A DNA stretch of 64,000 nt from NCBI GenBank assembly GCA_964016885.1, contig OZ024747.1:90396001-90460000 (forward strand), written 5' to 3'. The translations under genes were made by a program, and so were the position numbers. The notes under the pieces were generated by a model. It was not told the origin of the DNA, did not search any database, and saw only the letters and a program-made list of their open reading frames with translations. Positions 36,001 to 61,500 of this stretch are shown in pieces. Within the stretch, counting starts at the first letter, position 1. Each line of letters opens with the position of its first letter. This DNA is from Eledone cirrhosa. Lineage: Eukaryota.

Positions 36001-38871
36001 CCCCTATCTTTATAAACACACTATGTCTCCCTTTCCTTATCTCACCTCTATCTTTGTAAACACACTATGTCTCCCTTTCCTTATCTCACCTCTATCTTTA
36101 TAAACACACTGTGTCTCCCTTTCCTTATCTCACCTCTATCTTTGTAAACACACTATGTCTCCCTTTCCTTATCTCACCCCTATCTTTATAAACACACTAT
36201 GTCTCCCTTTCCTTATCTCACCTCTATCTTTGTAAACACACTATGTCTCCCTTTCCTTATCTCACCCCTATCTTTATAAACACACTATGTCTCCCTTTCC
36301 TTATCTCACCTCTATCTTTGTAAACACACTATGTCTCCCTTTCCTTATCTCACCTCTATCTCTGTAAACACACTATGTCTCTCTTTCCTTATCTCACCTC
36401 TATCTCTGTAAACACACTATGTCTCCCTTTCCTTATCTCACCTCTATCTTTATAAACACACTGTGTCTCCCTTTCCTTATCTCACCTCTATCTTTATAAA
36501 CACACTGTGTCTCTCTTTCCTTATCTCACCTCTATCTTTGTAAACACACTATGTCTCCCTTTCCTTATCTCACCCCTATCTTTATAAACACACTATGTCT
36601 CCCTTTCCTTATCTCACCTCTATCTTTATAAACACACTATGTCTCCCTTTCCTTATCTCACCTCTATCTTTGTAAACACACTATGTCTTCCTTTCCTTAT
36701 CTCACCTCTATCTCTGTAAACACACTATGTCTCCCTTTCCTTATCTCACCTCTATCTTTGTAAATATACTATGTCTCCCTTTCCTTATCTCACCTCTATC
36801 TTTGTAAACACACTATGTCTCCCTTTCCTTATCTCACCCCTATGTCTGTAAACACACTATGTCTCCCTTTCCTTATCTCACCTCTATCTTTGTAAACACA
36901 CTATGTCTCCCTTTCCTTATCTCACCTCTATCTCTGTAAACACACTATGTCTCCCTTTCCTTATCTCACCTCTATCTCTGTAAACACACTATGTCTCCCT
37001 TTCCTTATCTCACCTCTATCTTTATAAACACACTATGTCTCCATTTCCTTATCTCATCTCTATCTTTATAAACACACTATGTCTTCCTTTCCTTATCTCA
37101 CCTCTATCTTTATAAACACACTATGTCTCTCATTCCTTATCTCACCTCTATCTCTGTAAACACACTATGTCTCCCTTTCCTTATCTCACCTCTATCTCTG
37201 TAAACACACTATGTCTCCCTTTCCTTATCTCACCTCTATCTCTGTAAACACACTATGTCTCCCTTTCCTTATCTCACCTCTATCTCTGTAAACACACTAT
37301 GTCTCCCTTTCCTTATCTCACCCCTATGTCTGTAAACACACTATGTCTCCCTTTCCTTATCTCACCTCTATCTTTATAAACACACTATGTCTCCCTTTCC
37401 TTATCTCACCTCTATCTCTGTAAACACACTATGTCTCCCTTTCCTTATCTCACCTCTATCTCTGTAAACACACTATGTCTCCCTTTCCTTATCTCACCTC
37501 TATCTCTGTAAACACACTATGTCTCCCTTTCCTTATCTCACCTCTAACTCTGTAAACACACTATGTCTCCCTTTCCTTATCTCACCTCTATCTCTGTAAA
37601 CACACTATGTCTCCCTTTCCTTATCTCACCTCTAACTCTGTAAACACACTATGTCTCCCTTTCCTTATCTCACCTCTATCTCTGTAAACACACTATGTCT
37701 CCCTTTCTTTATCTCACCTCTATCTCTGTAAACACACTATGTCTCCCTTTCCTTATCTCACCTCTATCTCTGTAAACACACTATGTCTCCCTTTCCTTAT
37801 CTCACCTCTAACTCTGTAAACACACTATGTCTCCCTTTCCTTATCTCACCTCTATCTCTGTAAACACACTATGTCTCCCTTTCTTTATCTCACCTCTATC
37901 TCTGTAAACACACTATGTCTCCCTTTCCTTATCTCACCTCTATCTTTATAAACACACTATGTCTCCATTTCCTTATCTCATCTCTATCTTTATAAACACA
38001 CTATGTCTTCCTTTCCTTATCTCACCTCTATCTTTATAAACACACTATGTCTCTCATTCCTTATCTCACCTCTATCTCTGTAAACACACTATGTCTCCCT
38101 TTCCTTATCTCACCTCTATCTCTGTAAACACACTATGTCTCCCTTTCCTTATCTCACCTCTATCTCTGTAAACACACTATGTCTCCCTTTCCTTATCTCA
38201 CCCCTATGTCTGTAAACACACTATGTCTCCCTTTCCTTATCTCACCTCTATCTTTATAAACACACTATGTCTCCCTTTCCTTATCTCACCTCTATCTCTG
38301 TAAACACACTATGTCTCCCTTTCCTTATCTCACCTCTATCTTTGTAAACACACTATGTCTTCCTTTCCTTATCTCACCTCTATCTCTGTAAACACACTAT
38401 GTCTCCCTTTCCTTATCTCACCTCTATCTTTGTAAACACACTATGTCTCCCTTTCCTTATCTCACCTCTATCTCTGTAAACACACTATGTCTCCCTTTCC
38501 TTATCTCACCTCTATCTTTGTAAATACACTATGTCTCCCTTTCCTTATCTCACCTCTATCTTTGTAAACACACTATGTCTCCCTTTCCTTATCTCACCCC
38601 TATGTCTGTAAACACACTATGTCTCCCTTTCCTTATCTCACCTCTATCTTTGTAAACACACTATGTCTCCCTTTCCTTATCTCACCTCTATCTCTGTAAA
38701 CACACTATGTCTCCCTTTCCTTATCTCACCAATATCTTTGTAAACACACTATGTCTCCCTTTCCTTACCTCACCTCTATCTCTGTAAACACACTATGTCT
38801 CCATTTCCTTATCTCATCTCTATCTTTATAAACACACTATGTCTTCCTTTCCTTATCTCACCTCTATCTTT
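1..38871. repeat. 44-bp tandem satellite, block 1 (about 880 monomers; continues beyond the left edge)
   Basis: AAACACAC recurs every 44 nt (e.g. 251 and 295). The consensus has 9 A, 16 C, 17 T, 2 G and no CpG. Recurrent variants include ..TCTGT/TTTGT/TTTAT/TATGT, CCCCTATGTC, CTAACTC and CTCATT, plus occasional 1-2 nt indels. Confidence 0.99.
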
Positions 38872-40384
38872 TGATAACAACAACACCACCAACGACAACA
38901 ACAACACAAACAAACAAAATTTCTCCTTCGCCGAGACGACAAGGAAAACTCTCGACTATCTGCCAGTAGATATAACAAAAGCGAAGGAGCTACTGGCGGA
39001 TGCGAAAAAATATATAGTGTACGGGGAAAATGGTTCATTCACAATCCATTCCCCCCCGGAACTAAAAAGCCAGAGACTCCTAAACACGGTCATGTTTAGG
39101 ACAATCTCGAACAAAAGTAAAAAACCAGCTCAACCATCACAGAGCGAGATAGAGCTGGTTTTAAAAGACGTCATGAAGGACATCACCTTCATTCAGAAGG
39201 ATAGACTCTACGGGAGTCTATCCATTCTCATGAAGGACAGGGACACAGCAGTGAAACTGTCCATCAAACCAATCACATCCACCGCATACACCTTCTACCC
39301 TACGTACATGGGTAGAAGAACACAAAAAATAAAAATCCACACCATCCTGCCGATTATGGACATATGGTGGGTTTTGACAGGTTTTCTGGACCTGGAGGAT
39401 GACATGCTGGTGTCCATGGGAAAGGCATCGGGTGACGCGTTCAGTGGAACGAGCCTCGAACTTGTAGTTCAAATGAGGCCCGAAAGGATCGCCCAGATCC
39501 CTGAACGCGTCATACTGGATGATCTAACCTTCATCAACATTACCGTTGAGGGTAGACGGCCCTCGTGTTACCTCTGCGGAACCAGAGGTCACCTGAGGGC
39601 TGTCTGTCCCCAACTTAATAAGAAAACCCCAATCCTGCCTACACCACCAACAACTGCACAACCAACACAATCACCACAACTACCACTACAAAAACAACCA
39701 CCACAGCTCAAACCAAAACAAAACAATGTCCAACCCATCCCCTCCACTCAAAAAACAAAAACAATTTCCAAAACACCCGTACCGCAAACACAACCCGAAA
39801 ATATACCCCTCCCCTCCAACGCGGAAGATGACCCTAGTTCGTCGTCAGACGAGGAGGAGCACTTCCACACAATCAAAAGAAAAAAAAGAAAACACACCTC
39901 AGACACACAAATGAAAAAAAACCCTCCCCAAAACATAACACTGACACCAACACAAAAGAGCTCACAACAGCAAACAAAAAACACCACACAAAAACAAAAA
40001 CATGCATACACATACATAAATACAAGAAACAAAAAACTGTTAAACATTGTGTACAACAACAATCTAATAAAAACACAAGGGCCTAACTTCACCCAGGCAG
40101 GGGATTTCCCCCACCTCAAAATGATTAAGGCCCCACAGGACACCTATAAAACTTTAAAAAACAATTTTAAAGAGGACGTGGGTCCCCCCTGCGTCGGGCC
40201 CATTAACCGCGTCCTCCTAAAAAACTATCCCACCCCCTCCCCAAACACCCTCACAACTCCAAGCTCCCCAACCACACAACACACTGATGCCCCCACACTT
40301 CCACAAACCACCACCCCACCCAACAACCCATCCCCCACCCTAATGGAAATTGTGCAGCCCGATACCCGGGACGCAGAGAGGTAA
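38872..40384 (+). pseudogene. 5'-truncated ORF1 of copy A (lacks about 93 N-terminal codons)
   Basis: Near-identical to copy B ORF1 from DNNNTTND onward. The ORF-track start at 38795 lies in the satellite. Confidence 0.88.
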
Positions 40385-40408
40385 GTGCCTTTTCTCTTCA
40401 CCACCAAC

Positions 40409-43400
40409 ATGGCTATGCTAAGAGTAGGCTGTTTAAATGCGCGTGGCCTGGGCTCAACTTGGAAGCAAGCAATGCTTCTAAATGACCTCAGGTCACAACG
40501 TATAGATGTGATGGTTATTTGCGAGGCCCGGATCAGCAACGTGCGACAGCTGGCCCCCACCTTTGATGACTTTGAGATGCACGCATCTCTCTGTCAGCCC
40601 GGAGGTGGGGGTGGAGTTGTCGTTCTGCTGCAAAAACATCTGGGTCTCGCAACACAGATGGTACATTTGGACCCGGAGGGTCGACTAGTGGTTCTGGACC
40701 TTGGCAGTGGTAAAGGCGGAGCGTTTAGGTTGGTAGCCGCCTACGGCTCTTTCGGGTCAATGCGGCCGGACTTCTTCCATCGTCTGGAGACTTTTCTAGG
40801 GACGTCCCGCTCCTTGCTATTAGTGGGGGACTGGAATGGTATCCTAGATGCACGCTGGGACTACGTAGGGGCCTGCCCCGATAGAGAGGGGTGTAATAGC
40901 CTCAAAGGGTTAATCGGTCGATTTGACCTGGCCGATAGATATCGACTAGATTTTCCGACTGCGTCAACCTGGACTTGGGCAAATCGTAGCGGATCATCTA
41001 GGTCGTACCTAGATAGGTTCTTAGTTAGAATTAAGGATAAGGACTTTTTAAGTTGTCCAAAAATGCGCATGGTTGGCTATTCAGACCACAAATTAGTGAC
41101 CTGCATGGTCAACCTTGACAGAACTCATAGACAGGGCCCCGGTTACTGGAAGCTCAACTTGTCCTTGCCGGCAAGTAGAGCCTACAGGAATCGGATTAGT
41201 ACGTTAGTTAAGGAACGGTTGACTGGAGCGATCGTCAACAGCAGGTGGTGGGTATCTCTAAAGAGAGAGATTAGAGTAGTCTCGATAGAATTTAGTAAGG
41301 TTCTAGCTGCGGATAGGAATAGGAAGGAAAGGGAGCTAATAGATAGAGTAGAAGAGGCAATTAGAAGCGGCGACGTGGCCAGAGTGCTAGCGTCGAGAAC
41401 GGCTTTGAGCCAGTTTTTCGACGCGAAGCACGAAGGCTGCGTTGTCCGAAGTAAAATACGTGCTCTAGGGAACGAGGGGACCAAAGCTGTTAGCTGGGCC
41501 CGCGTGACAGAGGCCAACAGTGGAACTAAATCCACCATCCGGTCTTTGCGAGACCTGGATGGACGGGCGATTCTTGAGCCTAAGCAGATGTGTGAGGCCT
41601 TTCAAAGGCACTTTGCCCGACTGTTCGGGAGGGGCGGGGAGCCGGTTGGGAACGTGGACTTCGGTCCATACCTCGACGGCCTGCCGCGCCTCTCGGACAG
41701 GGAGGCGAAGTCCTGCGAGGAGCCGATTTCGGCCGCTGAGATAGAGGACGTGCTGAGCCAATGCGCAAAACGCAAATCCCCGGGTCTCGATGGTCTTCCT
41801 TACGAATTATATCTAGCTATGCCGGACTTGTTCCCCGATCTCCTCGAGGCGGTCTACTGCAACTGGCAACAGAACGGGAGAATTCCTTGTACTGTGACCA
41901 AGGGCGTAGTCACGCTAGTGAGGAAGGACGAGAACAAGGGGGACGAAATAAGTAACTTCAGGCCCATAACACTGCTAAATACAGAGTTACAGATTTTGGC
42001 CAAGGTGCTAGCAAAGAGGTTGGCGCTTGTCGTGGGCAACCTGGTGGGAGATGCGCAGACATGCGCTATCCCATCCAGGTCCATCCATGACAACCTCCAC
42101 CTCATGCGATACATCATAGAGAGGGTTGGGAACGAACCCGGCTTTGGTGGGGCTCTGATCAACTTGGATCAATCTAAGGCGTTCGATAGGGTCGACCATG
42201 GTTACCTGGATGCGGTGCTAGCGGCGGCAGGCTTCGGACCCGTTTTCAGGGGCTGGATCACTGCTATGCACAGCAGCCGCATCTGCTCTAGGGTCAAGGT
42301 GAACGGCTACCTCTCGGAGCCGTTCAAAGTCGCGCGGTCCATCCGACAAGGGTGCCTTCTCTCCTCCCTTCTGTATGTATTGACTCTCGAGCCACTACTG
42401 CGGAAGTTGGAGTTGTTGCAGGGCATCCCTTTGGAACCGGGATTGCGGAAAGCGGTGTCGGCCTACGCCGATGACGTGACAGTAATGGTGTCGACGGCCT
42501 CCGAAATCGAGGCGGTCGGCACCTTACTGGAGGAGTACGAAAAGTTCACAGGGGCTAAGCTGAACCGGGACAAGTCGATCGGTTTGCAACTCGGCACGTG
42601 GAGGGGCAGACCGATGCCCTCCGATAGCGTCGTCGGACGCTGGACGGAGGGCCCGGTGAAGTTGCTCGGGGTCTGGTTCGGACCGGACCTCCAGGTGGAG
42701 AAAAACTGGACGGAGGTTACGAACAGGGTGTTTGCACTGACCCAGAAGTGGGCCAGTTGCAAACTATCCCTGAAAGGTCGGGCGGAGGTGGCGAACACCT
42801 ACATAGCGTCCGTCATCTACTACCGCCTGACCGTAGTGCCCTGCCCAAGGGAAACCCTCACCAAGATGGAGCGCGCGCTCTTCCAATTCCTTTGGAAGAG
42901 GCGGGCTCCTATGGTGAGGAGATCCATCTGCTGTCAACACCCTTCGAAAGGAGGGCTGGGGATGCCGTGGCTAATGATGCGTAAACACGCATTAAGGCTA
43001 CGGCACCTCTACGTATTCCTCACCGGACAACCGGTGTGGGCCTCGTTTGTGAGACGAACCTTTCCCAGACTCGTCTCACTCACCGAGCTGCAATCCTGGG
43101 TCAAGCAAAGACCGAGAAAACTGGGCGCCTGGCACACTGAGTGTGCCCAGGCGCTCACCGCCCTCTGGCAGGCGGATCCGGTTATCAGTGGAGACTCCAC
43201 CGCAACATTCTATAGAGGGCTGGTACGCAGCAGGTGCGACGACGCCCTCGGAGAAGCCCTAGACATGGAGGAGGACGAACTGGCCAGCCTGTTCGGTAGG
43301 ACATTCAGCCCGGGACCTATGGACAACTTCCAGAAGTCCCTGGCCTGGCAGTGCTACCGAGGGGCTTTACCCGTTCGAGAAAGGCTCTACAGACACGGGC

Positions 43401-43846
43401 GCCCGGGTAGGGACCTCGCCAAAAAGATCTGTCCCAGATGCGTGTGCGACGAGGAAACCGTTGCACACGCATTAGTACACTGCTCGGGCGTAGCCGATCT
43501 GTGGGGCTATGTCGAACAACTGCTGTCAAGGGTGGGACCGATCCGGTTGACCACCGAGTCTATTGTAATGATCAAGCCGCCTCCCCCCTTCAAAGATGAA
43601 GCAGAGGCGGTGTTTCTGTGCGTAATAGCCATGGCGAAAGAGGTTGTATGGTGGACGCGTCTGAAAGGACTGAGGTCGGGCACCTTTCTCTCTGGCCAAC
43701 AACTGGTCCGTTTCTTCCGATATCATTTCGGAAGAAGGATCAGGATGGAGAGAGAGGTGCTGCACCCCAGCCGTTTCTATGAAAGATGGGTGAAAGTGGC
43801 GAGAATGGCCCGTGTGAATGGGCCTTCACTCTACATCAGACTATAG
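40409..43846 (+). CDS. ORF2: APE endonuclease + reverse transcriptase + C-terminal zinc finger (about 1145 aa from the first ATG), copy A
   Basis: APE motifs CLNARGL, ICE, GDWNG, YLDRF and SDH. Linker GPGYWKLN. RT motifs KSPGLDG, FRPITLLN, LDQSKAFDRVDH, RQGC(L)LS and YADD. Also GGLG and the C-terminal CPRC..ETVAHALVHC. First ATG at 40409 (AACATGG); the frame is open from 40385. Confidence 0.95.
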   Translation: MAMLRVGCLNARGLGSTWKQAMLLNDLRSQRIDVMVICEARISNVRQLAPTFDDFEMHASLCQPGGGGGVVVLLQKHLGLATQMVHLDPEGRLVVLDLGSGKGGAFRLVAAYGSFGSMRPDFFHRLETFLGTSRSLLLVGDWNGILDARWDYVGACPDREGCNSLKGLIGRFDLADRYRLDFPTASTWTWANRSGSSRSYLDRFLVRIKDKDFLSCPKMRMVGYSDHKLVTCMVNLDRTHRQGPGYWKLNLSLPASRAYRNRISTLVKERLTGAIVNSRWWVSLKREIRVVSIEFSKVLAADRNRKERELIDRVEEAIRSGDVARVLASRTALSQFFDAKHEGCVVRSKIRALGNEGTKAVSWARVTEANSGTKSTIRSLRDLDGRAILEPKQMCEAFQRHFARLFGRGGEPVGNVDFGPYLDGLPRLSDREAKSCEEPISAAEIEDVLSQCAKRKSPGLDGLPYELYLAMPDLFPDLLEAVYCNWQQNGRIPCTVTKGVVTLVRKDENKGDEISNFRPITLLNTELQILAKVLAKRLALVVGNLVGDAQTCAIPSRSIHDNLHLMRYIIERVGNEPGFGGALINLDQSKAFDRVDHGYLDAVLAAAGFGPVFRGWITAMHSSRICSRVKVNGYLSEPFKVARSIRQGCLLSSLLYVLTLEPLLRKLELLQGIPLEPGLRKAVSAYADDVTVMVSTASEIEAVGTLLEEYEKFTGAKLNRDKSIGLQLGTWRGRPMPSDSVVGRWTEGPVKLLGVWFGPDLQVEKNWTEVTNRVFALTQKWASCKLSLKGRAEVANTYIASVIYYRLTVVPCPRETLTKMERALFQFLWKRRAPMVRRSICCQHPSKGGLGMPWLMMRKHALRLRHLYVFLTGQPVWASFVRRTFPRLVSLTELQSWVKQRPRKLGAWHTECAQALTALWQADPVISGDSTATFYRGLVRSRCDDALGEALDMEEDELASLFGRTFSPGPMDNFQKSLAWQCYRGALPVRERLYRHGRPGRDLAKKICPRCVCDEETVAHALVHCSGVADLWGYVEQLLSRVGPIRLTTESIVMIKPPPPFKDEAEAVFLCVIAMAKEVVWWTRLKGLRSGTFLSGQQLVRFFRYHFGRRIRMEREVLHPSRFYERWVKVARMARVNGPSLYIRL

Positions 43847-44110
43847 GTGAGGAAGATGAAAGACCAAGGGAGCACCCCTTCTCTGTGCTCCTGAGGAGAA
43901 GGGTTGCACACTTTATTCGGGGGTGTGTGCGACCCCCCAAGGCGCCTCCTCTCTATTGAGGATTTTGTTAAAAATTTTATTTTTTGTTATATCTTATTTT
44001 ATTTTTATATTTTGTTATTGCCTCCTCCTTATTGAGGACGCCTTTTTGTGTAAACTCCCCCCTTTGTACTTGTCCCACTTTTGATGCCCTAGTGGCAAAT
44101 AAAAGAAATA
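43847..44110 (+). other. 3'UTR of copy A, with AATAAA at 44098-44103 and no poly(A) tail
   Basis: Follows the ORF2 TAG. Contains several stem-loops and a U-rich tract, and ends AATAAAAGAAATA. Confidence 0.8.
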
Positions 44111-47100
44111 TATCTTTATAAACACACTATGTCTCTCATTCCTTATCTCACCTCTATCTCTGTAAACACACTATGTCTCTCTTTCCTTATCTCACCTCTA
44201 TGTCTGTAAACACACTATGTCTCTCTTTCCTTATCTCACCTCTATCTTTATAAACACACTTTGTCTCCCTTTGCTTATCTCACCTCTATCTCTGTAAACA
44301 CACTATGTCTCCCTTTCCTTATCTCACCTCTATCTCTTTAAACACACTATGTCTCCCTTTCCTTATCTCACCTCTATCTCTGTAAACACACTATGTCTCC
44401 CTTTCCTTATCTCACCTCTATCTCTGTAAACACACTATGTCTCCCTTTCCTTATCTCACCTCTATCTCTGTAAACACACTATGTCTCCCTTTCCTTATCT
44501 CACCTCTATCTCTGTAAACACGCTATGTCTCTCTTTCCTTATCTCACCTCTATCTTTATAAACACACTATGTCTCCCTTTCATTATCTCACCTCTATCTC
44601 TGTAAACAACTATGTCTCTCTTTCCTTATCTCACCTCTATCTCTGTAAACACACTTTGTCTCCCTTTGCTTATCTCACCTCTATCTCTGTAAACACACTA
44701 TGTCTCTCTTTCCTTATCTCACCTCTATCTTTATAAACACACTATGTCTCCCTTTCCTTATCTCACCCCTATCTTTATAAACACATTATGTCTCTCATTC
44801 CTTATCTCACCTCTATCTTTGTAAACACACTATGTCCCCCTTTCCTTATCTCACCTCTATCTCTGTAAACACACTATGTCTCCCTTTCCTTATCTCACCT
44901 CTATCTCTGTAAACACACTATGTCTCCCTTTCATTATCTCACCTCTATCTCTGTAAACACACTATGTCTCCCTTTCCTTATCTCACCTCTATCTTTATAA
45001 ACACACTATGTCTCCCTTTCCTTATCTCACCTCTATCTTTGTAAACACACTATGTCTCCCTTTCCTTATCTCACCCCTATCTTTATAAACACACTATGTC
45101 TCTCTTTCCTTATCTCACCTCTATCTCTGTAAACACACTATGTCTCTCTTTCCTTATCTCACCTCTATCTCTGTAAACACACTATGTCTCTCTTTCCTTA
45201 TCTCACCTCTATCTCTGTAAACACACTATGTCTCCCTTTCCTTATCTCACCCCTATGTCTGTAAACACACTATGTCTCCCATTCCTTATCTCACCTCTAT
45301 CTTTGTAAACACACTATGTCTCCCTTTCCTTATCTCACCTCATCTTTGTAAACACACTATGTCTCCCTTTCCTTATCTCACCTCTATCTTTATAAACACA
45401 CTATATCTCCCTTTCCTTATCTCACCTCTATCTCTGTAAACACACTATGTCTCCCTTTCCTTATCTCACCTCTATCTCTGAAAACACACTATGTCTCCCT
45501 TTCCTTATCTCACCTCTATCTCTGTAAACACACTATGTCTCCCTTTCCTTATCTCACCTCTATCTCTGTAAACACATTATGTCTCTCTTTCCTTATCTCA
45601 CCTCTATCTCTGTAAACACACTATGTCTCCATTTCCTTATCTCACCTCTATCTCTGTAAACACATTATGTCTACCTTTCCTTATCTCACCTCTATCTGTA
45701 TAAACACACTATGTCTCCCTTTCCTTATCTCACCTCTATCTTTATAAACACACTATGTCTCCCTTTCCTTATCTCACCTCTATCTCTGTAAACACACTAT
45801 GTCTCCCTTTCCTTATCTCACCTCTATCTTTGTAAACACACTATATCTCCCTTTCCTTATCTCACCTCTATCTTTATAAACACACTATGTCTCCCTTTCC
45901 TTATCTCATCTCTATCTTTATAAACACACTATGTCTTCCTTTCCTTATCTCATCTCTATCTTTATAAACACACTATGTCTCCCTTACCTTATCTCACCCC
46001 TATCTTTATAAACACACTATGTCTCCCTTTCCTTATCTCACCTCTATCTTTATAAACACACTATGTCTCCCTTTCCTTATCTTACCTCTATCTCTGTAAA
46101 CACACTATGTCTCCCTTTCCTTATCTCACCTCTATCTCTGTAAACACACTATGTCTCTCTTTCCTTATCTCACCTCTATCTCTGTAAACACGCTATGTCT
46201 CTCTTTCCTTATCTCACCTCTATCTCTGTAAACACACTATGTCTCCCTTTCCTTATCTCACCTCTATCTCTGTAAACACACTATGTCTCCCTTTCCTTAT
46301 CTCACCTCTAACTCTGTAAACACACTATGTCTCCCTTTCCTTATCTCACCTCTAACTCTGTAAACACACTATGTCTCCCTTTCCTTATCTCACCTCTATC
46401 TCTGTAAACACACTATGTCTCCCTTTCCTTATCTCACCTCTATCTCTGTAAACACACTATGTCTCCCTTTCCTTATCTCACCCCTATGTCTGTAAACACA
46501 CTATGTCTCCCTTTCCTTATCTCACCTCTATCTTTGTAAACACACTATGTCTCCCTTTCCTTATCTCACCTCTAACTCTGTAAACACACTATGTCTCCCT
46601 TTCCTTATCTCACCTCTATCTCTGTAAACACACTATGTCTCCCTTTCCTTATCTCACCTCTAACTCTGTAAACACACTATGTCTCCCTTTCCTTATCTCA
46701 CCTCTATCTCTGTAAACACACTATGTCTCCCTTTCCTTATCTCACCTCTATCTCTGTAAACACACTATGTCTTCCTTTCCTTATCTCACCTCTATCTCTG
46801 TAAACACACTATGTCTCCCTTTCCTTATCTCACCTCTATCTCTGTAAACACACTATGTCTCCCTTTCCTTATCTCACCTCTATCTCTGTAAACACACTAT
46901 GTCTCTCTTTCCTTATCTCACCTCTATCTCTGTAAACACACTATGTCTCCCTTTCCTTATCTCACCTCTATCTTTGTAAACACACTATGTCTCCCTTTCC
47001 TTATCTCACCTCTATCTTTGTAAACACACTATGTCTCCCTTTCCTTATCTCACCTCTATCTTTATAAACACACTATGTCTCCCTTTCCTTATCTCACCTC

Positions 47101-50100: not shown

Positions 50101-52775
50101 TAAACACACTATGTCTCCCTTTCCTTATCTCACCTCTATCTCTGTAAACACACTATGTCTCCCTTTCCTTATCTCACCTCTATTTTTATAAACACACTAT
50201 GTCTCCCTTTCCTTATCTCACCTCTATCTCTGTAAACACACTATGTCTCCCTTTCTTTATCTCACCTCTATCTTTGTAAACACACTATGTCTCCCTTTCC
50301 TTATCTCACCTCTATCTTTATAAACACACTATGTCTCCCTTTCCTTATCTCACCTCTATCTCTGTAAACACACTATGTCTCCCTTTCCTTATCTCACCTC
50401 TATCTTTGTAAACACACTATGTCTCTATTTCCTTATCTCACCTCTATCTCTGTAAACACACTATGTCTCCCTTTCCTTATCTCACCTCTATCTCTGTAAA
50501 CACACTATGTCTCCCTTTCCTTATCTCACCTCTATCTTTGTAAACACACTATGTCTCCCTTTCCTTATCTCACCTCTATCTTTATAAACACACTATGTCT
50601 CCCTTTCCTTATCTCACCTCTATCTTTATAAACACACTATGTCTTCCTTTCCTTATCTCACCTCTATCTCTGTAAACACACTATGTCTCCCTTTCCTTAT
50701 CTCACCTCTATCTCTGTAAACACACTATGTCTCCCTTTCCTTATCTCACCTCTATCTCTGTAAACACACTATGTCTCCCTTTCCTTATCTCACCTCTATC
50801 TTTGTAAACACACTATGTCTCCCTTTCCTTATCTCACCTCTATCTCTGTAAACACACTATGTCTCCCTTTCCTTATCTCACCTCTATCTTTATAAACACA
50901 CTATGTCTTCCTTTCCTTATCTCACCTCTATCTCTGTAAACACACTATGTCTCTCATTCCTTATCTCACCTCTATCTTTGTAAACACACTATGTCTCCCT
51001 TTCCTTATCTCACCTCTATCTCTGTAAACACACTATGTCTCCCTTTCCTTATCTCACCTCTATCTCTGTAAACACACTATGTCTCCCTTTCCTTATCTCA
51101 CCTCTATCTCTGTAAACACACTATGTCTCCCTTTCCTTATCTCACCTCTATCTCTGTAAACACACTATGTCTCCCTTTCCTTATCTCACCTCTATCTCTG
51201 TAAACACACTATGTCTCCCTTTCCTTATCTCACCTCTATCTCTGTAAACACACTATGTCTCCCTTTCCTTATCTCACCTCTATCTCTGTAAACACACTAT
51301 GTCTCCCTTTCCTTATCTCACCTCTATCTCTGTAAACACACTATGTCTCTCTTTCCTTATCTCACCTCTATTTTTATAAACACACTATGTCTCCCTTTCC
51401 TTATCTCACCTCTATCTCTGTAAACACACTATGTCTCCCTTTCTTTATCTCACCTCTATCTTTGTAAACACACTATGTCTCCCTTTCCTTATCTCACCTC
51501 TATCTTTATAAACACACTATGTCTCCCTTTCCTTATCTCATCTCTATCTTTATAAACACACTATGTCTCCCTTTCCTTATCTCATCTCTATCTTTATAAA
51601 CACACTATGTCTTCCTTTCCTTATCTCACCTCTATCTCTGTAAACACACTATGTCTCCCTTTCCTTATCTCACCTCTATCTTTATAAACACACTATGTCT
51701 CCCTTTCCTTATCTCACCTCTATCTCTGTAAACACACTATGTCTCCCTTTCTTTATCTCACCTCTATCTTTGTAAACACACTATGTCTCTCTTTCCTTAT
51801 CTCACCTCTATCTTTATAAACACACTATGTCTCCCTTTCCTTATCTCATCTCTATCTTTATAAACACACTATGTCTCCCTTTCCTTATCTCACCTCTATC
51901 TCTGTAAACACACTATGTCTCCCTTTCCTTATCTCACCTCTATCTCTGTAAACACACTGTCTCCCTTTCCTTATCTCACCTCTATCTTTATAAACACACT
52001 ATGTCTCCCTTTCCTTATCTCATCTCTATCTTTATAAACACACTATGTCTCCCTTTCCTTATCTCACCTCTATCTTTATACACACACTATGTCTCCCTTT
52101 CCTTATCTCATCTCTATCTTTATAAACACACTATGTCTCCCTTTCCTTATCTCATCTCTATCTTTATAAACACACTATGTCTTCCTTTCCTTATCTCACC
52201 TCTATCTCTGTAAACACACTATGTCTCCCTTTCCTTATGTCACCTCTATCTATGTAAACACACTATGTCTCCCTTTCCTTATCTCACCTCTATCTCTGTA
52301 AACACACTGTCTCCCTTTCCTTATCTCACCTCTATCTCTGTAAACACACTGTCTCCCTTTCCTTATCTCACCTCTATCTTTATAAACACACTATGTCTCC
52401 CTTTCCTTATCTCACCTCTATCTCTGTAAACACACTATGTCTCCCTTTCCTTATCTCACCTCTATCTCTGTAAACACACTGTCTCCCTTTCCTTATCTCA
52501 CCTCTATCTTTATAAACACACTATGTCTCCCTTTCCTTATCTCACCTCTATCTCTGTAAACACACTATGTCTCCCTTTCCTTATCTCACCTCTATCTCTG
52601 TAAACACACTATGTCTCTCTTTCCTTATCTCACCTCTATTTTTATAAACACACTATGTCTCCCTTTCCTTATCTCACCTCTATCTCTGTAAACACACTAT
52701 GTCTCCCTTTCCTTATCTCACCTCTATCTTTGTAAACACACTATGACTCCCTCTCCTTATCTCACCTCTATCTTT
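44111..52775. repeat. 44-bp satellite, block 2 (197 monomers plus 7 bp)
   Basis: Same monomer and orientation as block 1. The length of 8665 equals 197x44 + 7 - 10, where the 10 nt are visible deletions (about 44628, 45341, 51959, 52309, 52351, 52481). Confidence 0.98.
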
Positions 52776-52993
52776 CTCTGGGATGGACACACGCGTATAA
52801 CTTGCTGAGTAAGTTCTGTTTAAATTTCTATAGAAATTCTTGTCTGATAACTTTAATTTTTGTACCATTTTGTAGAGGGACTGCCAGGTCAAACTTTGAT
52901 CTGGTCAGTCTCTCAAAATATTCTACGCCTTTAGGCGAAATAGTTAAACAAAAAAAAAAAGTTTTTTCTTGTTGAAAAGTCAATATTTTTTAA
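52776..52993 (+). promoter_or_regulatory. 5'UTR of copy B (possible internal promoter; structured)
   Basis: Lies between the satellite junction and the ORF1 ATG. Contains palindrome AATTTCTATAGAAATT (52823-52838) and a long hairpin (52875-52914). The promoter role is inferred only from L1-clade biology. Confidence 0.55.
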
Positions 52994-54784
52994 ATGGCCG
53001 AAGCTTCTTCACCAAAATTCGAAGGAGGAAAGGGGAAGATGAACTTACAGCTTCCTCCTGCCACTGTCACAGTAGCAGAGGTCAAGAAGATAGGTCAGCC
53101 AGAGGAAGAATTCTCTCCACCTGTTAACCGACAACTTGACGTTGCCATGGCAACAACCCAAAGAACCAGCAGCAACAGCAACAACAACAACAATGCGACG
53201 GACGAAAACAACACCAATAACAATAACAACAACAACAACAACAAGACCAATAACGGTGACAACAACAACAATGATAACAACAACACCACCAACGACAACA
53301 ACAACACAAACAAACAAAATTTCTCCTTCGCCGAGACGACAAGGAAAACCCTCGACTATCTGCCAGTAGATATAACAAAAGCGAAGGAGCTACTGGCGGA
53401 TGCGAAAAAATATATAGTGTACGGGGAAAATGGTTCATTCACAATCCATTCCCCCCCGGAACTAAAAAGCCAGAGACTCCTAAACACGGTCATGTTTAGG
53501 ACAATCTCGAACAAAAGTAAAAAACCAGCTCAACCATCACAGAGCGAGATAGAGCTGGTTTTAAAAGACGTCATGAAGGACATCACCTTCATTCAGAAGG
53601 ATAGACTCTACGGGAGTCTATCCATTCTCATGAAGGACAGGGACACAGCAGTGAAACTGTCCATCAAACCAATCACATCCACCGCATACACCTTCTACCC
53701 TACGTACATGGGTAGAAGAACACAAAAAATAAAAATCCACACCATCCTGCCGATTATGGACATATGGTGGGTTTTGACAGGTTTTCTGGACCTGGAGGAT
53801 GACATGCTGGTGTCCATGGGAAAGGCATCGGGTGACGCGTTTAGTGGAACGAGCCTCGAACTTGTAGTTCAAATGAGGCCCGAAAGGATCGCCCAGATCC
53901 CTGAACGCGTCATACTGGATGATCTAACCTTCATCAACATTACCGTTGAGGGTAGACGGCCCTCGTGTTACCTCTGCGGAACCAGAGGTCACCTGAGGGC
54001 TGTCTGTCCCCAACTTAATAAGAAAACCCCAATCCTGCCTACACCACCAACAACTGCACAACCAACACAATCACCACAACTACCACTACAAAAACAACCA
54101 CCACAGCTCAAACCAAAACAAAACAATGTCCAACCCATCCCCTCCACTCAAAAAACAAAAACAATTTCCAAAACACCCGTACCGCAAACACAACCCGAAA
54201 ATATACCCCTCCCCTCCAACGCGGAAGATGACCCTAGTTCGTCGTCAGACGAGGAGGAGCACTTCCACACAATCAAAAGAAAAAAAAGAAAACACACCTC
54301 AGACACACAAATGAAAAAAAACCCTCCCCAAAACATAACACTGACACCAACACAAAAGAGCTCACAACAGCAAACAAAAAACACCACACAAAAACAAAAA
54401 CATGCATACACATACATAAATACAAGAAACAAAAAACTGTTAAACATTGTGTACAACAACAATCTAATAAAAACACAAGGGCCTAACTTCACCCAGGCAG
54501 GGGATTTCCCCCACCTCAAAATGATTAAGGCCCCACAGGACACCTATAAAACTTTAAAAAACAATTTTAAAGAGGACGTGGGTCCCCCCTGCGTCGGGCC
54601 CATTAACCGCGTCCTCCTAAAAAACTATCCCACCCCCTCCCCAAACACCCTCACAACTCCAAGCTCCCCAACCACACAACACACTGATGCCCCCACACTT
54701 CCACAAACCACCACCCCACCCAACAACCCATCCCCCACCCTAATGGAAATTGTGCAGCCCGATACCCGGGACGTAGAGAGGTAA
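52994..54784 (+). CDS. ORF1 (gag-like nucleic-acid-binding protein, 596 aa) of copy B
   Basis: ATG in strong context (AAAATGG-like, TAAATGG). Contains an Asn-rich tract, the zinc knuckle CYLCGTRGHLRAVC (CX2CX4HX4C), a Pro/Gln/Thr-rich region, and acidic SSSSDEEE followed by basic KRKKRK (NLS-like). Its position upstream of APE-RT is typical of L1/Tx1 ORF1. Confidence 0.88.
   Translation: MAEASSPKFEGGKGKMNLQLPPATVTVAEVKKIGQPEEEFSPPVNRQLDVAMATTQRTSSNSNNNNNATDENNTNNNNNNNNNKTNNGDNNNNDNNNTTNDNNNTNKQNFSFAETTRKTLDYLPVDITKAKELLADAKKYIVYGENGSFTIHSPPELKSQRLLNTVMFRTISNKSKKPAQPSQSEIELVLKDVMKDITFIQKDRLYGSLSILMKDRDTAVKLSIKPITSTAYTFYPTYMGRRTQKIKIHTILPIMDIWWVLTGFLDLEDDMLVSMGKASGDAFSGTSLELVVQMRPERIAQIPERVILDDLTFINITVEGRRPSCYLCGTRGHLRAVCPQLNKKTPILPTPPTTAQPTQSPQLPLQKQPPQLKPKQNNVQPIPSTQKTKTISKTPVPQTQPENIPLPSNAEDDPSSSSDEEEHFHTIKRKKRKHTSDTQMKKNPPQNITLTPTQKSSQQQTKNTTQKQKHAYTYINTRNKKLLNIVYNNNLIKTQGPNFTQAGDFPHLKMIKAPQDTYKTLKNNFKEDVGPPCVGPINRVLLKNYPTPSPNTLTTPSSPTTQHTDAPTLPQTTTPPNNPSPTLMEIVQPDTRDVER
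53170..53308 (+). repeat. Imperfect (AAC)n microsatellite encoding poly-Asn in ORF1
   Basis: Runs of AACAACAAC translate as SNSNNNNN...NNNNNNNNN. Confidence 0.9.
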
Positions 54785-54808
54785 GTGCCTTTTCTCTTCA
54801 CCACCAAC

Positions 54809-57800
54809 ATGGCTATGCTAAGAGTAGGCTGTTTAAATGCGCGTGGCCTGGGCTCAACTTGGAAGCAAGCAATGCTTCTAAATGACCTCAGGTCACAACG
54901 TATAGATGTGATGGTTATTTGCGAGGCCCGGATCAGCAACGTGCGACAGCTGGCCCCCACCTTTGATGACTTTGAGATGCACGCATCTCTCTGTCAGCCC
55001 GGAGGTGGGGGTGGAGTTGTCGTTCTGCTGCAAAAACATCTGGGTCTCGCAACACAGATGGTACATTTGGACCCGGAGGGTCGACTAGTGGTTCTGGACC
55101 TTGGCAGTGGTAAAGGCGGAGCGTTTAGGTTGGTAGCCGCCTACGGCCCTTTCGGGTCAATGCGGCCGGACTTTTTCCATCGTCTGGAGACTTTTCTAGG
55201 GACGTCCCGCTCCTTGCTATTAGTGGGGGACTGGAATGGTATCCTAGATGCACGCTGGGACTACGTAGGGGCCTGCCCCGATAGAGAGGGGTGTAATAGC
55301 CTCAAAGGGTTAATCGGTCGATTTGACCTGGCCGATAGATATCGACTAGATTTTCCGACTGCGCCAACCTGGACTTGGGCAAATCGTAGCGGATCATCTA
55401 GGTCGTACCTAGATAGGTTCTTAGTTAGAATTAAGGATAAGGACTTTTTAAGTTGTCCAAAAATGCGCATGGTTGGCTATTCAGACCACAAATTAGTGAC
55501 CTGCATGGTCAACCTTGACAGAACTCATAGACAGGGCCCCGGTTACTGGAAGCTCAACTTGTCCTTGCCGGCAAGTAGAGCCTACAGGAATCGGATTAGT
55601 ACGTTAGTTAAGGAACGGTTGACTGGAGCGATCGTCAACAGCAGGTGGTGGGTATCTCTAAAGAGAGAGATTAGAGTAGTCTCGATAGAATTTAGTAAGG
55701 TTCTAGCTGCGGATAGGAATAGGAAGGAAAGGGAGCTAATAGATAGAGTAGAAGAGGCAATTAGAAGCGGCGACGTGGCCAGAGTGCTAGCGTCGAGAAC
55801 GGCTTTGAGCCAGTTTTTCGACGCGAAGCACGAAGGCTGCGTTGTCCGAAGTAAAATACGTGCTCTAGGGAACGAGGGGACCAAAGCTGTTAGCTGGGCC
55901 CGCGTGACAGAGGCCAACAGTGGAACTAAATCCACCATCCAGTCTTTGTGAGACCTGGATGGACGGGCGATTCTTGAGCCTAAGCAGATGTGTGAGGCCT
56001 TTCAAAGGCACTTTGCCCGACTGTTCGGGAGGGGCGGGGAGCCGGTTGGGAACGTGGACTTCGGTCCATACCTCGACGGCCTGCCGCGCCTCTCGGACAG
56101 GGAGGCGAAGTCCTGCGAGGAGCCGATTTCGGCCGCTGAGATAGAGGACGTGCTGAGCCAATGCGGCAAACGCAAATCCCCGAGTCTCGATGGTCTTCCT
56201 TACGAATTATATCTAGCTATGCCGGACTTGTTCCCCGATCTCCTCGAGGCGGTCTACTGCAACTGGCAACAGAACGGGAGAATTCCCTGTACTGTGACCA
56301 AGGGCGTAGTCACGCTAGTGAGGAAGGACGAGAACAAGGGGGACGAAATAAGTAACTTCAGGCCCATAACACTGCTAAATACAGAGTTACAGATTTTGGC
56401 CAAGGTGCTAGCAAAGAGGTTGGCGCTTGTCGTGGGCAACCTGGTGGGAGATGCGCAGACATGCGCTATCCCGTCCAGGTCCATCCATGACAACCTCCAC
56501 CTCAAGCGATACATCATAGAGAGGGTTGGGAACGAACCTGGCTTTGGTGGGGCTCTGATCAACTTGGATCAATCTAAGGCGTTCGATAGGGTCGACCATG
56601 GTTACCTGGATGCGGTGCTAGCGGCGGCAGGCTTCGGACCCGTTTTCAGGGGCTGGATCACTGCTATGCACAGCAGCCGCATCTGCTCTAGGGTCAAGGT
56701 GAACGGCTACCTCTCGGAGCCGTTCAAAATCGCGCGGTCCATCCGACAAGGGTGCCCTCTCTCCTCCCTTCTGTATGTGTTGACTCTCGAGCCACTACTG
56801 CGGAAGTTGGAGTTGTTGCAGGGCATCCCTTTGGAACCGGGATTGCGGAAAGCGGTGTCGGCCTACGCCGATGACGTGACAGTAATGGTGTCGACGGCCT
56901 CCGAAATCGAGGCGGTCGGCACCTTACTGGAGGAGTACGAAAAGTTCACAGGGGCTAAGCTGAACCGGGACAAGTCGATCGGTTTGCAACTCGGCACGTG
57001 GAGGGGCAGACCGATGCCCTCCGATAGCGTCGTCGGACGCTGGACGGAGGGCCCGGTGAAGTTGCTCGGGGTCTGGTTCGGACCGGACCTCCAGGTGGAG
57101 AAAAACTGGGCGGAGGTTACGAACAGGGTGTTTGCACTGACCCAGAAGTGGGCCAGTTGCAAACTATCCCTGAAAGGTCGGGCGGAGGTGGCGAACACCT
57201 ACATAGCGTCCGTCATCTACTACCGCCTGACCGTAGTGCCCTGCCCAAGGGAAACCCTCACCAAGATGGAGCACGCGCTCTTCCAATTCCTTTGGAAGAG
57301 GCGGGCTCCTATGGTGAGGAGATCCATCTGCTGTCAACACCCTTCGAAAGGAGGGCTGGGGATGCCGTGGCTAATGATGCGTAAACACGCATTAAGGCTA
57401 CGGCACCTCTACGTATTCCTCACCGGACAACCGGTGTGGGCCTCGTTTGTGAGACGAACCTTTCCCAGACTCGTCTCACTCACCGAGCTGCAATCCTGGG
57501 TCAAGCAAAGACCGAGAAAACTGGGCGCCTGGCACACTGAGTGTGCCCAGGCGCTCACCGCCCTCTGGCAGGCGGATCCGGTTATCAGTGGAGACTCCAC
57601 CGCAACATTCTATAGAGGGCTGGTACGCAGCAGGTGCGACGACGCCCTCGGAGAAGCCCTAGACATGGAGGAGGACGAACTGGCCAGCCTGTTCGGTAGG
57701 ACATTCAGCCCGGGACCTATGGACAACTTCCAGAAGTCCCTGGCCTGGCAGTGCTACCGAGGGGCTTTACCCGTTCGAGAAAGGCTCTACAGACACGGGC

Positions 57801-58246
57801 GCCCGGGTAGGGACCCCGCCAAAAAGATCTGTCCCAGATGCGTGTGCGACGAGGAAACCGTTGCACACGCATTAGTACACTGCTCGGGCGTAGCCAATCT
57901 GTGGGGCTATGTCGAACAACTGCTGTCAAGGGTGGGACCGATCCGGTTAACCACCGAGTCTATTGTAATGATCAAGCCGCCTCCCCCCTTCAAAGATGAA
58001 GCAGAGGCGGTGTTTCTGTGCGTAATAGCCATGGCGAAAGAGGTTGTATGGTGGACGCGTCTGAAAGGACTGAGGTCGGGCACCTTTCTCTCTGGCCAAC
58101 AACTGGTCCGTTTCTTCCGATATCATTTCGGAAGAAGGATCAGGATGGAGAGAGAGGTGCTGCACCCCAGCCGTTTCTATGAAAGATGGGTGAAAGTGGC
58201 GAGAATGGCCCGTGTGAATGGGCCTTCACTCTACATCAGACTATAG
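54809..58246 (+). pseudogene. ORF2 of copy B, interrupted by a nonsense codon
   Basis: CGA in copy A (41549-41551) is TGA at 55949-55951, splitting the frame into the 388-aa and 752-aa ORFs. The QGCPLS and YADD motifs are retained. Confidence 0.93.
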
Positions 58247-58510
58247 GTGAGGAAGATGAAAGACCAAGGGAGCACCCCTTCTCTGTGCTCCTGAGGAGAA
58301 GGGTTGCACACTTTTTTCGGGGGTGTGTGCGACCCCCCAAGGCGCCTCCTCTCTATTGAGGATTTTGTTAAAAATTTTATTTTTTGTTATATCTTATTTT
58401 ATTTTTATATTTTGTTATTGCCTCCTCCTTATTGAGGACGCCTTTTTGTGTAAACTCCCCCCTTTGTACTTGTCCCACTTTTGATGCCCTAGTGGCAAAT
58501 AAAAGAAATA
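58247..58510 (+). other. 3'UTR of copy B, with AATAAA at 58498-58503
   Basis: Matches the copy A 3'UTR except for one substitution (58315 vs 43915). Confidence 0.8.
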
Positions 58511-61500
58511 TATCTTTATAAACACACTATGTCTCCCTTTCCTTATCTCACCTCTATCTTTGTAAACACACTATGACTCCCTTTCCTTATCTCACCTCTA
58601 TCTTTGTAAACACACTATGTCTCCCTTTCCTTATCTCACCCCTATGTCTGTAAACACACTATGTCTCTCTTTCCTTATCTCACCTCTATCTTTGTAAACA
58701 CACTATGTCTCCCTTTCCTTATCTCACCTCTATCTTTGTAAACACACTATGTCTCCCTTTCCTTATCTCACCTCTATCTTTATAAACACACTATGTCTCC
58801 CTTTCCTTATCTCACCTCTATCTTTATAAACACACTTTGTCTCCCTTTGCTTATCTCACCTCTATCTCTGTAAACACACTATGTCTCCCTTTCCTTATCT
58901 CGCCTCTATCTTTGTAAACACACTATGTCTCCCTTTCCTTATCTCACCTCTATCTTTGTAAACACACTATGTCTCCCTTTCCTTATCTCACCTCTATCTT
59001 TATAAACACACTATGTCTCCCTTTCCTTATCTCATCTCTATCTTTATAAACACACTATGTCTCCCTTTCCTTATCTCATCTCTATCTTTATAAACACACT
59101 ATGTCTCCCTTTCCTTATCTCACCTCTATCTTTGTAAACACACTATGTCTCCCTTTCCTTATCTCATCTCTATCTTTATAAACACACTATGTCTCCCTTT
59201 CCTTATCTCACCTCTATCTTTGTAAACACACTATGTCTCCCTTTCCTTATCTCACCCCTATGTCTGTAAACACACTATGTCTCCCTTTCCTTATCTCACC
59301 TCTATCTTTGTAAACACACTATGTCTCCCTTTCCTTATCTCACCTCTATCTTTGTAAACACACTATGTCTCCCTTTCCTTATCTCACCTCTATCTTTATA
59401 AACACACTATGTCTCCCTTTCCTTACCTCATCTCTATCTTTATAAACACACTATGTCTCCCTTTCCTTATCTCACCTCTATCTTTATAAACACACTATGT
59501 CTCCCTTTCCTTATCTCATCTCTATCTTTATAAACACACTATGTCTCCCTTTCCTTATCTCACCTCTATCTTTATAAACACACTATGTCTCCCTTTCCTT
59601 ATCTCATCTCTATCTTTGTAAACACACTATGTCTCCCTTTCCTTATCTCACCCCTATGTCTGTAAACACACTATGTCTCCCTTTCCTTATCTCACCTCTA
59701 TCTCTGTAAACACACTATGTCTCCCTTTCCTTATCTCACCTCTATCTCTGTAAACACACTATGTCTCCCTTTCCTTATCTCACCTCTATCTCTGTAAACA
59801 CACTATGTCTCCCTTTCCTTATCTCACCTCTATCTCTGTAAACACACTGTCTCCCTTTCCTTATCTCACCTCTATCTTTATAAACACACTATGTCTCCCT
59901 TTCCTTATCTCACCTCTAACTCTGTAAACACACTATGTCTCCCTTTCCTTATCTCACCTCTATCTCTGTAAACACACTATGTCTCCCTTTCCTTATCTCA
60001 CCTCTATCTCTGTAAACACACTATGTCTCCCTTTCCTTATCTCACCTCTATCTTTGTAAACACACTATGTCTCTATTTCCTTATCTCACCTCTATCTCTG
60101 TAAACACACTATGTCTCCCTTTCCTTATCTCACCTCTATCTCTGTAAACACACTATGTCTCCCTTTCCTTATCTCACCTCTATCTTTGTAAACACACTAT
60201 GTCTCCCTTTCCTTATCTCACCTCTATCTTTATAAACACACTATGTCTCCCTTTCCTTATCTCATCTCTATCTTTATAAACACACTATGTCTTCCTTTCC
60301 TTATCTCACCTCTATCTTTGTAAACACACTATGTCTCCCTTTCCTTATCTCACCTCTATCTCTGTAAACACATTATGTCTCTCTTTCCTTATCTCACCTC
60401 TATTTTTATAAACACACTATGTCTCCCTTTCATTATCTCACCTCTAACTCTGTAAACACACTATGTCTCCCTTTCCTTATCTCACCTCTAACTCTGTAAA
60501 CACACTATGTCTCCCTTTCCTTATCTCACCTCTATCTCTGTAAACACACTATGTCTCCCTTTCCTTATCTCACCTCTATCTCTGTAAACACACTATGTCT
60601 CCCTTTCCTTATCTCACCTCTATCTCTGTAAACACACTGTCTCCCTTTCCTTATCTCACCTCTATTTTTATAAACACACTATGTCTCCCTTTCCTTATCT
60701 CACCTCTATCTCTGTAAACACACTATGTCTCCCTTTCCTTATCTCACCTCTATCTCTGTAAACACACTATGTCTCCCTTTCCTTATCTCACCTCTATCTC
60801 TGTAAACACACTATGTCTCTCTTTCCTCATCTCACCTCTATCTCTGTAAACACACTATGTCTCCCTTTCCTTATCTCACCTCTATCTCTGTAAACACACT
60901 ATGTCTCTCTTTCCTCATCTCACCTCTATCTCTGTAAACACACTATGTCTCCCTTTCCTTATCTCACCTCTATCTCTGTAAACACACTATGTCTCCCTTT
61001 CCTTATCTCACCTCTATCTCTGTAAACACACTATGTCTCTCTTTCCTCATCTCACCTCTATCTCTGTAAACACACTATGTCTCCCTTTCCTTATCTCACC
61101 TCTATCTCTGTAAACACACTATGTCTCCCTTTCCTTATCTCACCTCTAACTCTGTAAACACACTGTCTCCCTTTCCTTATCTCACCTCTATCTTTATAAA
61201 CACACTATGTCTCCCTTTCCTTATCTCATCTCTATCTTTATAAACACACTATGTCTTCCTTTCCTTATCTCACCTCTATCTCTGTAAACACACTATGTCT
61301 CCCTTTCCTTATCTCACCTCTATCTTTATAAACACACTATGTCTCCCTTTCCTTATCTCATCTCTATCTTTATAAACACACTATGTCTTCCTTTCCTTAT
61401 CTCACCTCTATCTTTGTAAACACACTATGTCTCCCTTTCCTTATCTCATCTCTATCTTTATAAACACACTATGTCTTCCTTTCCTTATCTCACCTCTATC

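Follow-up and report, generated by a model that had tools for sequence, protein, structure and literature searches.

Copies A and B, two retrotransposon inserts in a 44-bp satellite, very probably arose by separate insertion events of a young LINE family with about 2,000 members. The 3′ ends of this family almost always run into TAT(C/A)T, in most cases within (TATC)n tracts. The satellite was likely entered as the best local match to this motif. The initial annotation of the window, the whole stretch of 64,000 nt analysed here, had proposed that the family seeks out a single position in the satellite, which would offer it a safe harbour in many copies.

Two inserts in a single-locus satellite array

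The satellite forms a single array, 71 kb long with about 1,600 monomers, that starts about 24.8 kb ahead of the window. All exact 34-mer matches in the genome (1,111/1,111) lie inside this array, and a satellite at one locus does not provide the multicopy harbour that had been proposed. The monomer variants include TATCTTTAT (319 of 1,594 monomers), TATCTCTGT and TATCTTTGT. When the whole array was surveyed, only three inserts of this kind were found: A, B and a sister-family copy, C. The features in the window are:

1..38871, + strand: satellite array, left part
38865..38871, + strand: 5′ repeat of A, apparent 7-bp target-site duplication TATCTTT
38872..44110, + strand: copy A, L1/Tx1-type LINE, 5′-truncated by 496 nt, without the 5′ UTR and the ORF1 start
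40409..43846, + strand: ORF2 of A, open, 1,145 aa, with APE endonuclease, RT and zf-RVT
44111..44117, + strand: 3′ repeat of A (TATCTTT), running on into a TATCTTTAT monomer
44111..52775, + strand: about 197 satellite monomers that separate A from B
52681..52775, + strand: candidate 95-bp duplication at B, 5′ copy, with a rare variant at 52743 and TATCTTT as its final 7 nt
52769..52775, + strand: 5′ TATCTTT repeat of B
52776..58510, + strand: copy B, full-length element, 5,735 nt
52994..54784, + strand: ORF1 of B, 596 aa; it contains an Asn-rich stretch, and residues 325-338 form its single CX2CX4HX4C knuckle
54809..58246, + strand: ORF2 of B, with a premature stop at 55949-55951
58247..58510, + strand: 3′ UTR of B, which has no poly(A) tail and closes with AATAAAAGAAA-NN
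58511..58517, + strand: 3′ TATCTTT repeat of B
58511..63241, + strand: satellite, right part, opening with the TATCTTT repeat and holding the second rare variant at 58573
63242..64000, + strand: unrelated RT-like fragment, by its motifs likely of Penelope type, that closes the array at another monomer phase

A and B are co-oriented and share the junction CACCTC-TATCTTT-element-TATCTTT-ATAAACACAC. Over the 5,239 nt in common they differ by 24 substitutions and no indels, and the 5′ end of B, which extends 496 nt beyond that of A, is the 5′ end common to 334 genomic copies. The orientation, junction structure, truncation and approximate number of substitutions given in the initial annotation were thus reproduced, and the independence of the two copies is supported. 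A comparison with 30 close copies in the genome gave 13 private changes for A and 11 for B, none of them shared; the two minority alleles common to A and B are each present in 14 of the 30. It is improbable that the copies go back to a single insertion, A being derived from B or both from a common ancestral insertion by satellite duplication and a later 496-nt deletion. Such an origin would fit the same 7-bp junction repeat on both copies, which is shorter than elsewhere in the family, and the repeat pattern indicates that local duplication occurs in the array, where three rare monomer variants reappear at a lag of 88 monomers. However, A and B each differ from copies on another contig at 19-24 positions and from one another at 24, so that they are as close or closer to those copies than mutually. 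Their flanking monomers are unlike, the rare variant beside B is not found beside A, and the deletion would have needed to start at the junction phase.

Duplications elsewhere in the family measure 11-22 bp at about a dozen readable loci chosen by eye, that of C is 15 bp, and those of A and B are apparently 7 bp. Both A and B join after exactly TATCTTT, despite these longer duplications and the truncation of A. Around B, positions 52681-52775 and 58511-58605 are identical at 92 of 95 nt, with two of the mismatches within the first 8 nt. Since the array contains just two monomers of one rare variant, the first to the left of B (52743) and the second to its right (58573), the real duplication at B may, judged from these repeats, be about 95 bp and not 7. 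A 95-bp duplication with two mismatches in its first 8 nt is unexplained by a simple 7-bp model. For A, duplications of 51 and 95 bp were ruled out by 4 and 12 mismatches, respectively.

The element has two ORFs, and ORF2 combines an N-terminal APE, an RT and a C-terminal zinc-binding region, which matches the L1 group (L1/Tx1). Pfam recognised Exo_endo_phos and RVT_1, with zf-RVT below the cut-off (E 6e-5), and the motifs NARG, GDWN, SDH and YADD are present. Against the PDB, human LINE-1 ORF2p (8sxt and others) was the best solved relative across endonuclease and RT (E 8e-46) and R2 scored E 7e-18 or weaker; "closer to L1" here means L1 versus R2, in a comparison set without CR1, RTE and Jockey references. 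The named ORF2 homologues were plant L1-type proteins and one tunicate pol-like protein, with no named Tx1 sequence among the homologues returned by searches with the element protein. In ORF1 the CX2CX4HX4C knuckle scored below the Pfam cut-off as zf-CCHC (E 0.051), and the Pfam search gave no match to Transposase_22 or an RRM. The ORF1 of the Tx1 clade is described as RRM/zf-CCHC type, not Transposase_22, in PMC5203782. By its sequence features, the family is an L1/Tx1-type APE LINE.

Copy A also carries a donor-like AG|GTAAGT at 40382 and acceptor-like sites near 43838-43845; one exact DNA pattern for a genomic copy with ORF2 spliced out had 0 matches. No RNA run was listed among the sequencing runs that contain the element. 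In the 4 of 24 listed runs that were aligned, near-identical pieces from runs labelled organisms C and D had a depth of about 2-10; as these may be stray DNA, they were not read as a sign of transfer between species.

Target preference across the genome

Genomic copies were counted by exact patterns, which gave 1,986 3′ ends and 334 5′ ends of the family; copies can be truncated at the 5′ end, the 3′ end is constant, and target-site duplications occur. The copies are young, about 0.4-0.9% apart. After NN, TAT(C/A)T follows 1,928 of the 3′ ends (97%) and TATCTATC follows 1,290 (65%), whereas only 2 of the 1,986 join the 44-bp satellite. Most copies therefore lie in other flanks, the outcome named beforehand as speaking against homing to the satellite, and that part of the proposal was abandoned. 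The part that describes a sequence-specific L1/Tx1-type APE LINE stands, with TAT(C/A)T and not the satellite as the target. None of the first 30 loci among the matches listed lay in the satellite.

The flanks were sampled from the first matches listed, all on contig C1. For the 5′ side, 12 of 80 rows were set aside because they had another upstream part, were rearranged or were incomplete. Of the 68 true junctions left, 48 are rich in TATC and 8 in TA, and 12 are of other kinds. Since 48 of the 68 5′ flanks are TATC-rich, the repeat is the target and not just a tail. According to the text of PMC4494074, target specificity is assigned when >20% of copies lie beside one repeat type, a share far exceeded by both the 1,290 3′ ends and the 48 5′ flanks.

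The satellite monomer contains a 7-nt match, TCTATCT, to (TATC)n. A matrix built from 86 non-array 3′ flanks assigns 0.85-0.94 of the array weight to the phase and strand of the inserts. The other TATCT of the monomer gets no more than 0.013, and the minus strand no more than 0.005. The initial annotation had put the chance of a second insert matching phase and strand at 1 in 88; since 85-94% of the motif weight falls on the phase and strand used, that null, which ignores sequence preference, is wrong. The TATCTTTAT variant receives only 0.21-0.48 of the weight; A, B and C all have it on their 3′ side.

Homing to one satellite position, with the array as a multicopy harbour, is extremely improbable. 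It would account for A, B and the sister copy C sharing phase and strand, and for the presence of two insertions in a 71-kb array where a uniform distribution would give 0.047 (P about 0.001), an excess of about 40-fold. But the genome-wide motif already predicts the phase, the satellite lies at one locus with only the three inserts, and use per site in the array is 2 of about 1,350 TATCT-N-T sites (0.0015). This is not higher than for (TATC)n, at 1,290 of 260,720 positions (at most 0.005), a denominator from which short tracts are missing and in which tracts that grew through the insertions are counted. We conclude that the satellite is an incidental insertion site for this LINE family.

Copy C, with an ORF2 of 83% identity, lies 24 kb upstream at the same satellite site as A and B. 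Its own family has 1,429 3′ ends; among 30 sampled, 29 were followed by TAT(C/A)T and none by the satellite.

Proposed insertion mechanism

From the known biology of L1 and Tx1 elements, the APE endonuclease would nick the GATA-reading strand of a TATC-like site. [quoted passage not shown] Since the RNA end resembles the target, the first nick can be placed only to within a few bases. The junction of B is one base off a perfect (TATC)n-element join, and the 5′ join was for this reason probably aided by pairing of a leading TATC repeat in the cDNA with the target TATCTTT. Each duplication leaves TATC on both sides, which is likely why sister families stack in shared tracts.

Alternatively, pairing between the target and an RNA tail made by read-through could largely decide the site, rather than the endonuclease alone, so that daughters of a satellite donor re-home to the array. 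The family 3′ end passes without a poly(A) tail straight into a target-like repeat, TATCTTTAT stands on the 3′ side of all three inserts, and if the duplication at B is taken as 95 bp, its 3′ copy opens with TATCTTTA, as if supplied by the RNA, where the 5′ copy has TATCTCTG. We consider tail pairing improbable all the same. At the non-microsatellite loci L014, L117, L145 and L146 the sequence after the element agrees with the local 5′ flank past TAT, so any RNA tail is short. The genome-wide 3′-end pattern count found a satellite tail on none of the copies outside the array, the full-length B cannot derive from the truncated A, and C belongs to another family and reads TATCTTTAT in its 5′ duplicate too. 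It is equally doubtful that the 95-bp duplication of B records the tail of a satellite donor, as in a microsatellite-seeking LINE starting to switch to a complex satellite.

Relation to known targeted elements

As an APE-type LINE with a (TATC)n/(GATA)n target, the family likely works, by analogy, like Kibi, Koshi and the crocodilian Tx1 families. In PMC4494074 and PMC3812793, Kibi (TC)n and Koshi (TTC)n are microsatellite-specific members of the teleost Tx1 clade, and as here an APE-type LINE enters the pyrimidine-rich strand; unlike them, the present family has the unit TATC and tolerates TA and degenerate sites. The crocodilian Tx1-1_Crp, Tx1-5_Crp, Tx1-6_Crp, Tx1-1_Gav and Tx1-2/3/5/8_AMi, listed on (TTCC)n or (TTTC)n in PMC4494074, share with it a tetranucleotide preference across several sister families of one genome, whereas the unit here is TATC and the family is young. 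Since the target unit is TATC or TA and not TC, TTC, TTCC or TTTC, the family works like a microsatellite-targeting Tx1 element of the Kibi/Koshi type but is none of them. It differs from human LINE-1 by the CCHC knuckle in an ORF1 with no Transposase_22 match and by the missing poly(A) tail.

Other clades, R1 and R4, contain Waldo, Mino and Dong. These are microsatellite-specific non-LTR elements as well, with the different units ACAY, AC and TAA, in PMC3812793, where the target of human LINE-1 is TTAAAA as against TAT(C/A)T here. The Fig. 3 legend in PMC4494074 labels some Tx1 families "Sat, satellites"; they target satellites, which the present family does not, and with such targeting on record satellite homing would be no new category. 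That figure and its supplement list targets and could include a TATC-type entry. Among listed titles and the openings of abstracts in the open literature, no paper on a Tx1 element with a TATC or GATA target was found.

How APE elements choose microsatellites is not well understood, as stated in PMC3812793. If Repbase has no such entry, (TATC)n/(GATA)n joins the microsatellites chosen by L1/Tx1-type elements, a modest advance. The satellite insertions are useful here: they lie outside a simple repeat, so every base of their junctions can be assigned, they reveal the site degeneracy that is tolerated (TATCTTTAT), and they offer ready substrates for nick mapping.

Two LINE copies in a single satellite array

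The 44-bp satellite filled nearly the entire window and was interrupted by two long inserts, A and B, while a third, C, was located upstream on the same contig (C7).

Long inserts in the array and the flanks of B
38872-44110, + strand: copy A, TATCTTT repeats on either side
52776-58510, + strand: copy B, TATCTTT repeats on either side
52681-52775 and 58511-58605: possible 95-bp duplication flanking B; each side holds one copy of a variant that occurs only twice in the array
C7:90371603-90377403 (L103/L104), ~24 kb before the window: insert C, same monomer site as A and B, clean 15-bp duplication

A and B were inserted at the identical monomer position in matching orientation, which confirms the shared junction described in the initial annotation. 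Its unlike 5' ends and roughly 24 substitutions were also recovered: B extends 496 nt further at its 5' end, and 24 substitutions but no indels separate the copies across 5,239 nt. In B, ORF1 encodes 596 residues with one CCHC knuckle and ORF2 is interrupted by a stop codon (55949-55951), whereas in A, ORF2 is open (1,145 aa) and ORF1 lacks its start. Since ORF2 carries APE endonuclease, RT and zf-RVT domains (the last below the cut-off) and its closest solved structure is human L1 ORF2p, the family is assigned by its sequence to the L1-group LINEs. A tentative Tx1 label would fit the ORF1 type (excerpts of PMC5203782) and the insertion habit; the homologue search returned no named Tx1 sequence. 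The 3' end has no poly(A) tail and terminates in AATAAAAGAAA-NN. The ORF1 stop is embedded in a donor-like AG|GTAAGT (40380-40387) and the end of ORF2 coincides with an acceptor-like CAG/TAG (43838-43845), with equivalents in B; one exact pattern found no DNA copy in the genome with ORF2 spliced out.

All 1,111 exact 34-mer satellite matches in the assembly lay within the 104 kb fetched around the window, so that every array position was surveyed. The satellite is a single array at one locus with three long inserts in total, and not the multicopy safe harbour proposed earlier. It starts at G000:C7:90371223 (L103), immediately following a (CTT)n/(CCT)n tract. Within window 1-63241, each of three rare monomer variants reappears 88 monomers further along, which suggests a past block duplication of ~3.9 kb. 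At 63242-64000 an unrelated RT-like fragment with a YVDD motif closes the satellite at a different phase. By its motifs we take it to be a likely 5'-truncated Penelope-type element; HTH_animal, found in 19% of one Atlas cluster, offers a lead.

TATC repeats as the genomic target

Element 3' ends were counted by exact patterns in the 3.0-Gb genome, yielding 1,944 matches, or 1,986 with a slightly shorter version. Next to these 1,986 ends, NN-TAT(C/A)T was present at 1,928 (97%) and NN-TATCTATC at 1,290 (65%). The satellite followed only two, both in the window, with a pattern spanning about half of the same-strand phases. Flanks were then read at 80 loci, a non-random sample of the first listed hits on another contig, C1. 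The 3' junction was TAT(C/A)T in all 80. Twelve loci were excluded (nine with a different upstream part, seven of these with a diverged ORF1; two rearranged; one cut off), and the 5' flanks of the remaining 68 were TATC-rich in 48, TA-rich in 8 and other in 12. The TATC repeat is the insertion target and not merely the element's tail. Duplications of 11-22 bp beginning at TAT were readable at about 12 loci with non-pure-repeat flanks, chosen by eye. Other minisatellites also hold family copies at TAT(C/A)T sites (L065, L087, L088, L117, L145, L146, L014), so insertions such as A and B are not peculiar to this array. Head-to-tail stacks, in which a short TATC tract or a duplicated target lies between neighbouring copies, were seen at L023-L025 (G000:C1:42.27 Mb), L039, L041, L134 and L140.

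The mapping of genomic 3' ends that the initial annotation had named as its check therefore contradicts homing to the satellite: the insertions of A and B are real and independent, but the satellite was the wrong target.

Independence of the inserts and choice of the monomer position

To compare A and B with their relatives, 40 loci were fetched via their 5' ends, and the 38 exceeding 5 kb were aligned with both. Against the 30 closest copies, A carried 13 changes absent from B, and B 11 absent from A; 23 of these 24 occurred in none of the 30. Only two minority alleles were common to A and B, each present in 14 of the 30. A and B differ at 24 positions, and each has C1 copies at a distance of 19-24. 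Such a pattern is typical of a young, star-like subfamily from which A and B were inserted separately, and separate insertion is what was first proposed; duplication of one copy into the other would be expected to leave it only if the copying had followed insertion very soon.

Precisely where the elements join, the monomer reads TCTATCT, which agrees with (TATC)n over 7 nt. A weight matrix was built from 86 distinct 3' flanks outside the array. Across the array, the phase and + strand actually used received 0.85-0.94 of the weight, the monomer's other TATCT at most 0.013 and the minus strand at most 0.005. With the weight so concentrated, the probability of a second insert sharing the position of the first is roughly 0.7-0.9 and not the 1 in 88 calculated earlier. 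The two insertions in this 71-kb array surpass the uniform null (expected 0.047). Per-site use was 0.0015 in the array (0.006 for the TATCTTTAT variant) versus at most 0.005 in (TATC)n, a figure with a rough denominator of 260,720 positions. The TATCTTTAT variant, 319 of 1,594 monomers, lies on the 3' side of A, B and C alike; the matrix gives it a partial preference only (0.21-0.48), and the motif model fits this recurrence poorly.

C is a full-length sister-family LINE with both ORFs open, 83% identical to the A/B family in ORF2 and 46% in ORF1. Its family has 1,429 3' ends; among 30 sampled, TAT(C/A)T followed 29 and the satellite none. That two families, alike in their preference for this microsatellite, chose one site is what a shared short motif would predict. 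At L109, L111, L124, L130, L137, L151 and L162 a diverged ORF1 (~55% identity) is joined to an ORF2 and 3' end of the A/B family, switching at element positions ~1,800-1,900, which suggests ORF1 exchange among sister families. L107 and L108 had no ORF1 match upstream.

Insertion mechanism and known target units

By established L1/Tx1 biology, the APE endonuclease would nick the GATA-reading strand and reverse transcription would start there, while the target-site duplication would result from another nick further downstream. Since the element ends in AATAAAAGAAA-NN and not in poly(A), the position of the nick is uncertain by a few bases. In most full-length copies, ATCT directly precedes the first bases of the element, and the 5' junction of B is one base off this join, which suggests that leading TATC on the cDNA pairs with the target there. 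Each duplication would leave TATC on both sides of the insert; this likely accounts for the stacked sister elements in many flanks.

A and B were both joined after exactly TATCTTT, shorter than the duplications at other loci. One copy of the rare variant lies to the left of B and the other to the right, at a spacing of two monomers if B is taken out, and the flanking 95 nt match at 92 positions, two of the three differences falling within the first 8 nt. Because 646 of 1,614 ordinary windows are equally similar at the two-monomer lag, only the rare variant is informative, and one other of 14 rare variants shows this lag without an element. Either the duplication of B spans ~95 bp, or satellite turnover may have duplicated two monomers before or after insertion. 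That target choice is guided partly by a read-through RNA tail pairing with the nicked DNA, a reading built on this match, is improbable.

In excerpts of the literature, Kibi targets (TC)n and Koshi (TTC)n (PMC4494074, PMC3812793), crocodilian Tx1 families target (TTCC)n or (TTTC)n, and a figure legend lists satellites among known Tx1 targets (both PMC4494074). An excerpt on Octopus vulgaris tabulates recently active L1-Tx1 families and gives no targets (PMC13282606). Article listings and abstracts showed no TATC or GATA target; an entry of this type may exist in Repbase, in Dfam or in the PMC4494074 supplement. Microsatellite targeting by such LINEs is already known, and judged against these excerpts the novelty of the A/B family lies in its target unit only, TATC instead of TC, TTC, TTCC or TTTC.
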